In this document: piece by piece, positions 1 to 3,000 of the stretch
How positions within the stretch are numbered: position 1 is the first letter of the stretch
Layout of the letters: each line of letters starts with the position of its first letter
DNA from: a plasmid
Sequence record: NZ_CP072284.1
Length of the DNA: 5,679 nt
Strand: one strand, 5' to 3'
Position numbers: made by a program

Positions 1-3000
1 GCGAGAGACACTGTATGTGGTCTCTGTATATAAAGTGCTAGATCGCTTAAGAAAAAAAGTTTCATTATTTCGATTAAAAGAATAAACATCCGATGGCGAC
101 TGACCAATTTTATTTGGCTCTAAAACACTGTTTCCAATAAATTGTTGAATAATATTGGGCAATTCCATCAAGTTTTCCTTTTATTCAGCATTAAAACCCC
201 GCAAATGCAAGGCCTAGTAAATAGATGATCTTAATTTGGTTCACTGTAGCAAAAATATGGGGCGAATTCAAAACTGGTTCAATAGCCTAAGCAGAAAAAG
301 GAGTATTTGATTATCCGCACTACTATACTTCCTAAAAAAAAATGCTCTCAACTTCTCAACTCGTACCCAAAGCGTCGCACTTCGTGCTTTGGCTTTGGAA
401 ACGGTTGAGAGAGTTTCGGCAATACTCTCCCTAAAGGCGGTCATTTAAAAAAATGACGCATCCTTTAAGTATTGCCGATTTACCGCATATTCTTTTGGCT
501 TCGGAGCCACGTATATCGGTCGTATCCGCACATAGCTTTGCAAACTATGCAGACAAGGACTAAAGGTCTTGCACCTCTCCCCACACGCTCCCTGTCGAAG
601 TATGGCGGTATCTCTGCGAGGGTTTCCCCAACATACAACTTAACCAACCTATACAACTACTCTTAACGCTCCGCTTTTGTGAGATTCCCCTGTAGCGGTT
701 TAGCCTTTCGACTATCGCTACGTTGCACCAGTGACACTTATTCCCTCCACATGCAACGCATGCCAATCCGTAAAACGGACACGCAGGAGCAGGCAAAGCT
801 CGATCTAGGATGCTTATTTGATGATTTAAAACACGGATTAACGAAGACTTATCATTTTGAGTCTTGATCTAAACACTGTTTATTGTGAAAATAGAGTTCA
901 GGTACAAGCCTTTGTGTGAAATCTGCACGAGTTGGTAGCTCTGCTGATCTTCGTTACTTGATGTTCCACCATCAAATAACTGCGTACCGCTGAATATAAA
1001 GCGAAAGCCCATTGAGTTGCAAGATTCAATGGGCTTTTTCTTTGATCAATCAGATATTAAGACAAAAAAGAGAGGTCATATCTAATCATGACTAAATCCC
1101 TAATCAAGCACGTTTCAATGCCATAATATGGCGAACCATATCGTTAATATGTTGTTTTGTTTCATTATCTTGTGAACTTAACCATGCAACTACATCAGCA
1201 TCAAAAGCCTGTGCTTGAGCTATGGTATGGCGTTCCTGTAATTTCTTCACAAAGCTAGGTTTAACCAATGGCGCATTGGTAGGGTCAAAATTTTTATAGC
1301 GTTCTAGTTCATTTTGCATTGCTGTACCTCCGCTTTTGGTGATGTGATGGTTCAAATGCAGTGATTATTCTCGCAACATCTCCACGTTCAACCCAAACCA
1401 CTGTTAATAGTCTACCACGATTGCTTAAACCGACTGATATTAGTCGTTGTTCATCATAGTGTCCTACATCCTCAAAAGAGATCAATGCAGGATCAAGGAA
1501 AATACTACAGACCTCCTCGAACGTGATTTCTCGCCCTCGATAGACTAAATCCATTTTTTGGTCATGCCATTCAAATAACAAGCCGTAATATTCAATTAAT
1601 GGCATGATTACCTCTTTTCCTCTCGTGAAATAAAAAATATGCCTATTATTTTGGGTCTATGACACAAAAATCTCCATTTTTTCCATATCCGCACTGCTTT
1701 TTCATCACACGAACACACGGTTTAGATTCCTCTCCAACAGTACAGCTTCCAATATCAAACTGGATACCTTGCTGTCTTAAGCTCTCGATCTGAGGGATAT
1801 TTTCTAAAGGTTTGATATAAACACTGAATAACCAAATGATGCCAAGCATCAGAATAGCGAAAATGCCTAAAATAATGGTGATGATTTTCCATGAAAATTG
1901 ATCACTAGTTGATTCAATCGAGTTTTTTAAATGTCCAAGTGCCTTAGCGGTCTTGATAAGCTCTGCTGTACCCTCCTGTAAGCCCGTATTTAGCGATTTT
2001 GATACAGTGCTATGGGTTTGCTCTGCGATGACCTTCTGAATGTGTTCTTTCGTGATTTGAAGCTCTTTAACGGCCTGATTGACTAGGTTCTGCTGTTGTT
2101 CTGCAACTGCCATCAGTGCATATAACTTTTTTTCATCAGGTGTCATCGGCTCATCCCTCTAAACTTCATTGTTTTCTGTTGCTCTCGTTCTAATTTCTGC
2201 TGTTCTTTGTACTGCTGTAAGGCAAGCTGTTTAAAGCTGGCAAAATCAGCCTTAAAACTCTCAATGCCCTGTTTAATTTCTTTGTCTGAGATAGGGCTGT
2301 TTTTGAGGTCTTTCAGGTCGTTTTTAGGGTCGCCTAAATCTAGTCGCTCAAGCTCTTTATAGGCTGTACGTGACTGTTGCAAGGCTTCCCTGATTTCAGG
2401 GTCTTTGGCTTGGCTTGGTAAGAGTTTCTTTTCAGGGTCTTTCTCTATGCCTTGCTCTTTGTAGCTTCGCATATCAATACGGCTGTCAATTTGGTGTTTT
2501 TCCAAATGGCTATTGCATAAATCCGCCCACCTTTGGCGTAGGTCTTTAATATCAGTTTTTCGTTCCTGGTAACTCTTGCCTGTATTGTCTTTTTTAGCTC
2601 CGCCACGTTCAGGATTCTTGCTGTTATAGCGTTTGAAATATTGCTCTGGATCTCGTTCGATTCCATCTTGCAGACGTTCATTAAACATGAGGTGGATGTG
2701 GGGCTGATCGTTGCCGTCCATTGCTTTAGGGTTATGAATTGCAAACTGATACGGATATTTTGAGCCAATTTCAGACTGAATAAAGTCTTCAACCAGTTCT
2801 AGGCGTTGCTCAGCATTCATCTCTCTAGGCAGGGCAATTTCATATTCTCGATAGGTACTGCCATTTTTACGCTCGTAAAGGTCGGCTGCTTGCCAAAAGG
2901 TAATCGGATTATGTTCAGCCCATTTCGGCATATTTCCATAGTCACTATGTTCAAGGTCGGATTGTTCCTGTTTCAGCTTTTTTTCTTCGTCCCGATCAAT

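Follow-up and report, generated by a model that had tools for sequence, protein, structure and literature searches.

The DNA analysed here, referred to as the window in the following, is the complete 5,679-bp circular plasmid of sequence record NZ_CP072284.1, linearised within its aphA6 gene. It encodes no recognisable replication initiator protein (Rep), but contains at positions 333-1043 a sharply bounded, conserved non-coding block, which by its homology to experimentally defined minimal replicons would be the replicon of this plasmid. Within the block, two converging promoters, an intrinsic terminator and numerous covarying RNA structures are conserved, while its sequence carries no coding signal. 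We consider it fairly probable that the block is a Rep-less replicon run by RNA, in which a long structured transcript would be countered by a short antisense RNA, and that it represents a family specific to Acinetobacter, comprising the pRAY, pALWEK1.15, pAba810CPb-like and pNDM-BJ01-type plasmids.

The conserved block and its minimal replicons

Searches of the window's open reading frames (ORFs) against Pfam and NCBIfam returned the BrnT, MobA/MobL relaxase, TraD and APH families only, and no replication initiator family. This agrees with a sequence-only reading of the same DNA, which had noted the lack of a Rep gene and had proposed positions 300-1100 as a ColE1-type replicon primed by RNA. 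The core of that proposal survives in the block at 333-1043, which is homologous to fragments sufficient for replication, whereas the parts of 300-1100 outside it are not conserved. The region is also GC-richer, as had been stated, with a G+C content of 0.47-0.50 over 401-800 compared to 0.22-0.43 elsewhere.

Conserved copies of the block occur in 239 PLSDB plasmids, of which 234 come from Acinetobacter. Scanning species-representative genomes gave about 50 further copies and led to a set of 47 unique full-length sequences; when genome contigs were scanned with a 17-mer, many chance matches in unrelated taxa also came up, and these were removed by BLAST. In the following, promoter conservation is counted over 46 unique copies, while the alignment of the predicted short RNA (A1) comprises 45 sequences and that of the predicted long RNA 47. 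Similarity between the copies ends sharply at 1043/1044 on the right and at 333 on the left, or at 404 in copies with an alternative allele of a hairpin described below (H1). These edges hold whatever genes adjoin, and the flanks of the relatives are unrelated. The backbones carry MOBQ or MOBP relaxases, and some of them are conjugative, others non-mobilizable. Homology extends over the whole ~710 bp of the block and includes invariant motifs at 411-426, 515-531, 551-561, 665-674, 728-739 and 970-981.

Apart from the window, this family includes pRAY*, the pALWEK1.15 group and pAba810CPb-like plasmids, and probably also the pAba11510b type (CP023300), judging by the pAba810CPb-like records. 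In the case of pNDM-BJ01-type plasmids, BLAST finds only window 890-1044 in common, and it is the family profile, searched with nhmmer, that aligns the whole block to an intergenic gap of these plasmids, in one piece at 872-1654 of locus L014 (E=3e-67) and in two pieces at 861-1656 of pNDM-AB (L013, NC_020818; E=2e-48 and 2e-9). The pNDM-type copy, located in a 1.6-kb gap beside parA, is diverged but complete. It retains the two promoters, the stem-loops SL1 and SL2, the terminator, the hairpin H2 and the motifs, and it coincides with a published 834-bp replicon.

A side observation concerns the neighbourhood of the block in pAba810CPb-like 12-20-kb plasmids of Acinetobacter baumannii and in p3AsACE, where a gene of family NF038291 (rep_pAB02_ORF2) lies 160-250 bp downstream of it (L009 1565-2134, L015 1589-2164 and L016 1687-2232). 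NF038291 is a 'plasmid replication DNA-binding protein' with a helix-turn-helix motif, whose usual place is after repB in Rep_3 plasmids; here, it stands beside a Rep-less module.

The assignment of the block as a replicon builds on two published constructs. The first, pRAY*-delta1, is a 2808-bp HindIII deletion derivative that lacks mobA and mobC and replicates (PMC6160057). The matching 2807-bp HindIII fragment of a pRAY-like contig has the whole block inside and otherwise shows no similarity to the window, be it at the DNA level or in six-frame comparison. The second is an 834-bp fragment of pAhaeAN54e, a plasmid of the pNDM-BJ01 type, which is sufficient for replication in Acinetobacter haemolyticus (PMC11142715). 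As the peptide ORFs P2-P4 described for this fragment are found at their published spacing in the pNDM-type gap, the 834 bp could be mapped onto window ~367-1048 plus 66 nt.

Neither iterons nor tandem or direct repeat families are found in the block, and none of its 47 copies contains a DnaA box with ≤1 mismatch. The block thus does not show the iterons and the conserved DnaA boxes beside an A+T-rich element that mark an iteron- or DnaA-dependent theta replicon. A one-mismatch DnaA box which had been counted as part of the replicon does exist (TTATCCGCA, 311-319) and is the only box with ≤1 mismatch in the window, but it lies outside the block, where the relatives have unrelated sequence. We rejected it as a part of the module, given that the relatives diverge completely left of 333. 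Inside the block, the motif at 515-531 (ATCGGTCGTATCCGCAC), which is invariant in all 47 pRAY/pALWEK-type copies and not in pNDM-type copies, includes the DnaA-box-like sequence GTATCCGCA with two mismatches.

The region had furthermore been described as free of ORFs. Mechanically, ORFs of 58-78 amino acids can be found in it, but none of them is conserved. The family alignment shows frequent indels of 1-2 nt, and its variable columns are distributed evenly over the codon phases, without an excess at third positions.

Two converging promoters and their predicted transcripts

The plus-strand promoter, P+ (864-892), consists of a -35 element TTGATC (864-869), a 17-nt spacer and a -10 element GAAAAT (887-892), which is preceded by TGn to form an extended -10 element (884-892). 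Its pattern, TTGnnn and (T/G/A)AnAAT at a distance of 16 or 17 nt, is present in 46/46 unique copies, with variable spacer sequences. From a predicted transcription start site (TSS) at 899-901, P+ would produce an RNAI-like antisense RNA of ~145 nt (899-1043, plus strand), ending at an intrinsic terminator at 1003-1043 (plus strand), which is composed of a hairpin with a 16-bp stem and a loop (1003-1038) and the U-tract TCTTT (1039-1043). It is the only terminator called within 200-1400. The predicted RNA has no match to an Rfam family and a minimum free energy of -49.4 kcal/mol (z = -5.3). It comprises the stem-loops SL1 (918-952, core 921-949) and SL2 (953-980) in front of the terminator hairpin, so that the three consecutive plus-strand hairpins with a U-run, as seen in the sequence-only reading, are borne out.

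In alignment A1, which covers SL1, SL2 and the terminator, 92.3% of the cells are paired (shuffles: 81.9%), with a covariation score of 0.235, compared to 0.065 in shuffled alignments (0/500) and 0.03-0.06 with slid partners. SL1 has a covarying stem, with compensatory changes UA/GC and AU/UG/CG at A1 pairs 32-51 and 33-50, and a variable loop of 6-7 nt, which reads UUGGUAG in the window. In the terminator, 9/15 pairs are changed on both sides, and some relatives have a different hairpin at this position. The stem of SL2 is invariant except for one migrating mismatch and carries a hypervariable loop.

The diversity of these loops is considerable: 41 combinations of SL1 and SL2 include 18 SL1 variants and 32 apical SL2 variants. 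Conserved stems below hypervariable loops are the expected pattern for an antisense RNA that sets incompatibility, and it appears likely that the SL2 loop is the specificity determinant. Family plasmids that reside in the same strain always differ in this loop. For instance, the five plasmids of Acinetobacter gerneri CIP 107464 (L029, L034, L064, L071, L080) have five different SL2 loops, four of them together with a common SL1, and the several plasmids found per strain in Acinetobacter sichuanensis each have a different SL2 (L051, L065, L072, L084). This is consistent with a role in incompatibility, albeit a weak test in view of the loop diversity. The presence of four to five family plasmids in single strains suggests that many compatibility types exist within this one replicon family.

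The minus-strand promoter, P- (1022-993), was identified in a promoter scan and is embedded in the terminator of the short RNA. Its -35 element, TTGCAA (1022-1017), lies in the terminator loop and is followed by an 18-nt spacer and the -10 element TATATT (998-993). The pattern TTGnnA, 17 or 18 nt, TA(A/T)ATT is present in 46/46 unique copies, and P- is kept even where the terminator hairpin is unrelated, as in TTGACA-17-TAAATT, TTGCGA-17-TAAATT and TTGACT-17-TATATT. Transcription from P- is predicted to start at ~986, within the block, and its overlap with the short RNA would therefore extend over ~899-986, including SL1 and SL2 and leaving the terminator out. The sequence-only reading had instead started the long RNA from a -10 element TAATAT on the complement of 1054-1059. 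This hexamer is present, but it is located outside the block in sequence that is unrelated in the relatives; we discarded it as an RNAII promoter because the relatives diverge completely past 1043, and kept P-. With the promoter at 1022-993, the start at ~986, the overlap at ~899-986 and the DnaA box outside the module, the claimed match to ColE1 geometry does not hold in detail. What stands is the general prediction that a terminated antisense RNA overlaps a long structured transcript at its 5' end, for which both promoters, the covarying stems and the terminator argue.

The long transcript itself (335-986, minus strand) would comprise ~650 nt and resemble RNAII, which makes it a candidate pre-primer; its covariation, its G-richness and the lack of a conserved ORF point in this direction. 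A G-rich minus-strand transcript of about 550-600 nt had been proposed before. Its G-rich and structured character is confirmed, but not its start near 1046. The plus-strand GC skew is -0.22 over 501-800. For the minus strand of the 47 sequences, RNAalifold predicts 199 pairs (94% paired), 60 of them with compensatory changes. The covariation score amounts to 0.208, compared to 0.110 in shuffles (maximum 0.115), and the supported helices span positions 990 to 367.

The 5' end of this RNA has distal partner segments at 775-846 (minus strand), with which it could form an alternative fold to SL2. Helix 990-980/786-775 shows 4 compensatory pairs (0/300 shuffles) and helix 959-949/846-836 shows 2, while helix 979-970/823-814 is a perfect, invariant 10-bp duplex that competes with SL2. 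Since the plus-strand RNA starts at ~899, both partners of these helices (990-949/846-775) are contained only in the minus-strand RNA. Counts of G.U versus A.C by region favour the minus strand at 561-700 (56 vs 17) and 801-900 (19 vs 9) and the plus strand at 901-1048 (52 vs 11), an asymmetry in keeping with both predicted transcripts.

The left third of the block harbors the two large hairpins that had been noted at first sight. H2 (416-478; z = -8.7) is a 63-nt hairpin with an A7/U7 apical loop. Its outer 11 bp are invariant, its inner stems covary (5/5 and 2/6 pairs), and it is kept with compensatory changes in pNDM-type plasmids. H1 (343-413; z = -4.4/-3.8) and a minus-strand U-run (342-333) form the left edge of the module (333-413, minus strand) and are the probable terminator of the long RNA. 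The inner stem of H1 covaries, and the hairpin exists in two allelic forms. H1 is partly dispensable: the construct pDOG-B103, which starts at ~window 367 and thus has neither the left arm nor the U-run, replicates with a growth cost. A primer end, if there is any, would thus not derive from the H1 terminator. Next to H2, a small conserved hairpin (GGCUCCGAAGCC, 497-508) and a variable A/U-rich linker (481-496) constitute a candidate RNA-to-DNA transition (481-512, minus strand), which may be regarded as one candidate for the origin. The motif GGCTCCGAAGCCAAAAGA, which had been compared to the RNase H processing site of ColE1, is indeed found here, as the complement of 491-508.

Proposed mechanism and competing explanations

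We propose the following model. Host RNA polymerase would start at P- and make the G-rich, structured minus-strand RNA up to H1 and the U-run at ~335. This RNA would act as an activator or pre-primer. In the left third of the block (~404-510), it would stay annealed to the DNA as a persistent hybrid and offer host enzymes a starting point for leading-strand synthesis in the leftward direction. H2 and H1 may provide structural signals or sites for primosome loading, or act as a terminator. The initial ~88 nt of the long RNA would find their full complement in the RNA made from P+. By pairing via the loops of SL1 and SL2, this short RNA may divert the 5' domain of the long RNA from the fold it needs (990-949 with 846-775) and thereby set copy number and incompatibility.

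Published experiments on pAhaeAN54e fit this model. Three mutations, M2, M3 and M4, each abolished replication (PMC11142715), and they map to the 3' arm of H2, to the body of the long RNA near 655-665 and to the 5' arm of SL2, respectively. The truncation pDOG-BCc2, which does not replicate, extends to ~window 999; of P-, only the -10 element remains, and the terminator is lost along with the -35 element.

Several points weigh against such a replicon run by RNA. Both transcript start sites are predictions, and both strands beat shuffles in folding, so that fold z-scores do not separate them. We also tried and rejected whole-structure counts of G.U versus A.C as a guide to the strand, as these changed from 918 vs 164 in folds that permit G.U pairs to 149 vs 150 in strand-neutral ones. 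With no overall asymmetry and two strands that fold well, the strand assignment rests mainly on the promoters, the terminators and the region-wise asymmetry. The shuffle controls ignore phylogeny, and SL2, with its invariant stem, contributes no evidence from covariation. The linker at 481-496, which is part of the candidate origin, shows the lowest conservation within the core, with indels of 1-9 nt. Moreover, the authors of the study on the 834-bp replicon ascribe its function to three small peptides (PMC11142715). Finally, priming by RNase H and DNA polymerase I in particular is a tentative element of the model, which we are somewhat more inclined to doubt than to accept.

The architecture described above is therefore ColE1-like, in that a Rep is missing and an antisense RNA covers a long structured RNA at its 5' end, and the block could truly descend from the ColE1 family, as a member that has diverged very far. 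Pairwise local alignment to ColE1 yields a single match of 19/21 positions at the apex of SL1 (GATCA..AGAGCTACCAACTC), in the same orientation and with a score of 31 compared to 20.7 +/- 2.1 in shuffles (0/200). The 13-mer GAGTTGGTAGCTC, which the sequence-only reading had singled out as conserved in RNAI, is present at 929-941 (plus strand), where ~0.01 chance matches are expected, and also lies within the Rfam-called RNAI of ColE1. Its distance to the predicted start of the long RNA is 46-58 nt in both replicons. Furthermore, loops of the UUGG(U/A)AG type, which resemble all three loops of ColE1 RNAI, occur on the plus strand, in 5/18 SL1 and 2/32 SL2 variants, and not on the minus strand (0).

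Nevertheless, we regard descent from ColE1 as unlikely. The match has no wider homology around it and is limited to a hypervariable loop, with the 13-mer being found in only 9/~60 family loci. U-turn (YUNR) kissing loops are favoured in antisense RNAs, and convergence on a favoured kissing-loop geometry is the simpler reading of the shared loop. The Rfam model of RNAI (RF00106) recognises ColE1 with 73.8 bits, but in the same run finds nothing at E<=1 in four relatives, nor does it match the whole window or the region 860-1110 (251 nt) at E<=10; otherwise, the Rfam scans gave only sub-threshold chance matches, such as ctRNA_pGA1 at 22 bits. The family profile likewise has no match to ColE1 at E<=10, even with all nhmmer filters off (--max). 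The earlier assignment to the ColE1/pMB1/p15A family thus finds no support in the covariance model or in the profile. In addition, the RNAI-like terminator lies outside the overlap, unlike in ColE1. Nor can one system functionally stand in for the other: A. haemolyticus does not support replication of a ColE1 vector, and attempts to establish pRAY in Escherichia coli failed.

It also appears improbable that the origin is fired by host proteins only, be it DnaA, another factor or an opening by transcription, and that the RNA pair merely tunes transcription through it. Replication of the 834-bp fragment without a Rep would be compatible with such an origin. So would an A+T-rich stretch at ~826-900, suggested to be an unwinding element in PMC11142715, and the two-mismatch DnaA box in the invariant 17-mer at 515-531. 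However, the A+T-rich stretch is explained by P+ and its variable spacer, the block has neither iterons nor a better DnaA box, and ~600 nt of covarying helices are hard to reconcile with a protein-bound origin.

A still weaker case can be made for the peptides P2, P3 and P4 (Bello-Lopez et al. 2024) as a joint initiator, with the RNAs being incidental. In pAhaeAN54e, loss of the start codon of P2 or P4, a frameshift in P3 and a truncation of P4 abolished replication (PMC11142715), and all three ORFs are present in pNDM-AB (L013 992-1192, 1179-1322 and 1569-1712). Yet each of them is intact in 0/49 other homologous blocks, including the one on the close backbone L014, as start codons are missing, stops occur early or lengths do not fit the frame; the window has a stop after 11 codons in the P4 frame. 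The indels and the lack of codon periodicity in the family alignment provide no coding signal for these peptides, and the peptide mutations each also hit a conserved RNA or promoter element, namely H2, the RNA body, SL2 or the -35 element of P-. Taken together, we find an initiator made of these peptides very improbable.

Rolling-circle replication via the MobA relaxase, or an unrecognised Rep among the orphan ORFs of 166 (1646-2146) and 168 amino acids (4070-4576), is hardly credible, for although relaxases nick DNA and three ORFs of the window have no family assignment, pRAY*-delta1 replicates without mobA and mobC, pDOG-B103 contains the 834-bp block only, both orphan ORFs are missing from the minimal replicons and the block travels with unrelated backbones.

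We therefore retain the replicon run by RNA as our preferred explanation. In its widest form, it would state that an independent Acinetobacter family, not descended from ColE1, is behind at least three and probably four of the 'No Rep' groups (pRAY, pALWEK1.15, pNDM-BJ01 and probably pAba11510b), that its initiator is the ~650-nt RNA with a promoter inside the terminator of its own antisense regulator, and that the 'essential peptides' are by-products of mutations in RNA elements. For this combination as a whole, we regard the chances as evenly balanced.

Plasmid context, implications and related systems

Directly to the right of the block, a gene for a BrnT-family toxin (1309-1605, minus strand) overlaps an 83-amino-acid ORF without a family match (1104-1355), and the two presumably form a BrnT/BrnA toxin-antitoxin pair. 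They are followed by the 166-amino-acid orphan ORF, the MobA/MobL (MOBQ) relaxase gene (2143-3066), the gene of a TraD-like protein (3490-3918), the 168-amino-acid orphan ORF with a G+C content of 25%, and aphA6, encoding APH(3')-VI, on the minus strand (177 to 1, continuing from 5679 to 5068). A long A/T-rich inverted repeat (CTTCTTTTTTTCATTCAATTTTCAATTGAACGAAAAAAAGAAG) at 3224-3310 separates the relaxase operon from the traD-like gene and is probably part of the origin of transfer (oriT); the Rfam matches that it received are spurious matches to miRNA models.

Cryptic Acinetobacter plasmids of 4.0-4.6 kb share 93-96% identity with the backbone (281-3906), and the accessory segment with aphA6 (3907-5679 and 1-280) is inserted into the 3.6 kb of this backbone. 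Here, aphA6 comes without the ISAba125 copies that flank TnaphA6. No pdif (XerC/D) sites were found around the segment at ≤3 mismatches, and its part 3907-4520, which holds the 168-amino-acid ORF, has no megablast match in PLSDB. The sequence AATAGCCTAAGCAGAAAA at 284-300, shortly before the left edge of the block, is also found in several relatives with a MOBQ backbone and marks the end of the aphA6 segment, with backbone similarity starting again at 281. The pALWEK1.15 group has been catalogued as 34 Rep-less plasmids of 3-8 kb that are associated with aphA6 (PMC12284255), and the window plasmid fits into this group. It is therefore not the unusual chimera of a ColE1-like replicon, aphA6 and an RSF1010-type mobilization module for which it had been taken.

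About a quarter of the complete Acinetobacter plasmids (437/1846) have no recognisable Rep (PMC12284255), and in 2025 their mode of replication was stated as unknown; they therefore escape typing schemes based on rep genes. These plasmids carry resistance determinants such as aadB, aphA6, blaOXA-24 and blaNDM-1, and the module described here is also present in the plasmids that spread NDM-1. That such plasmids lack a Rep and may be ColE1-like has been stated before (PMC5559437, PMC6160057, PMC6863613). In the literature that we searched, we did not find a single block uniting the pRAY, pALWEK1.15, pAba810CPb-like and pNDM-BJ01 types, the location of the two promoters, an antisense RNA with hypervariable loops, or the non-conservation of the peptides P2-P4. 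If our model is correct, one RNA module of ~710 bp accounts for replication in several Rep-less groups, and the one study that has dissected such a replicon experimentally is to be reinterpreted. The SL1 and SL2 loops could then serve as a marker for typing and incompatibility, the two promoters, the two loops and the H2 hairpin would be defined targets, and the block would provide a compact origin for Acinetobacter vectors.

Among known systems, ColE1, pMB1 and p15A provide the obvious comparison. They share with the block the absence of an initiator protein and a short, terminated antisense RNA that is directed against the 5' end of a long transcript from a convergent promoter. In both cases, the stem-loops expose recognition loops of 6-7 nt that vary between compatible plasmids, and the long RNA is G-rich, about 550-650 nt in length and endowed with large hairpins at its distal end. 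In contrast, the overlap has two stem-loops here instead of three, the antisense terminator outside of it houses the -35 element of the long-RNA promoter, there is no rop, the host is Acinetobacter rather than a member of the Enterobacterales, and no similarity was detected by sequence or covariance model. The Marine RNA-based (MRB) ColE1-like plasmids of Vibrio (cited in PMC8683028) are comparable by description, as a lineage-specific group with small RNAs, two stem-loops and variable loops that set incompatibility, but they belong to a different host order.

Further parallels come from Acinetobacter itself. The small, Rep-less 'ColE1-type' plasmid pAbe229-4 of Acinetobacter bereziniae (PMC6863613), compared here by reported identities, has 70% identity over its positions 1-692 to p3AsACE (PMC6863613), a plasmid that carries the block; its RNAI and RNAII were assigned by Brovedan et al. 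(2019) based on 54% and 44% identity to ColE1 (PMC6863613). For pRAY-type plasmids, Hamidian and Hall (2018) suggested a ColE1-like antisense mechanism without locating its site (PMC6160057). These 'no Rep' plasmids, pRAY/pRAY* and pD36-1, have the same block, with ~80% identity over window 333-1000, while pRAY differs by a MOBP instead of a MOBQ relaxase, by aadB, and by its terminator hairpin and H1 allele. The 834-bp replicon of pAhaeAN54e and pNDM-BJ01 (pNDM-YR7-like; PMC11142715), lastly, represents a homologous block with ~60-76% identity and an extra insert of ~100 nt.

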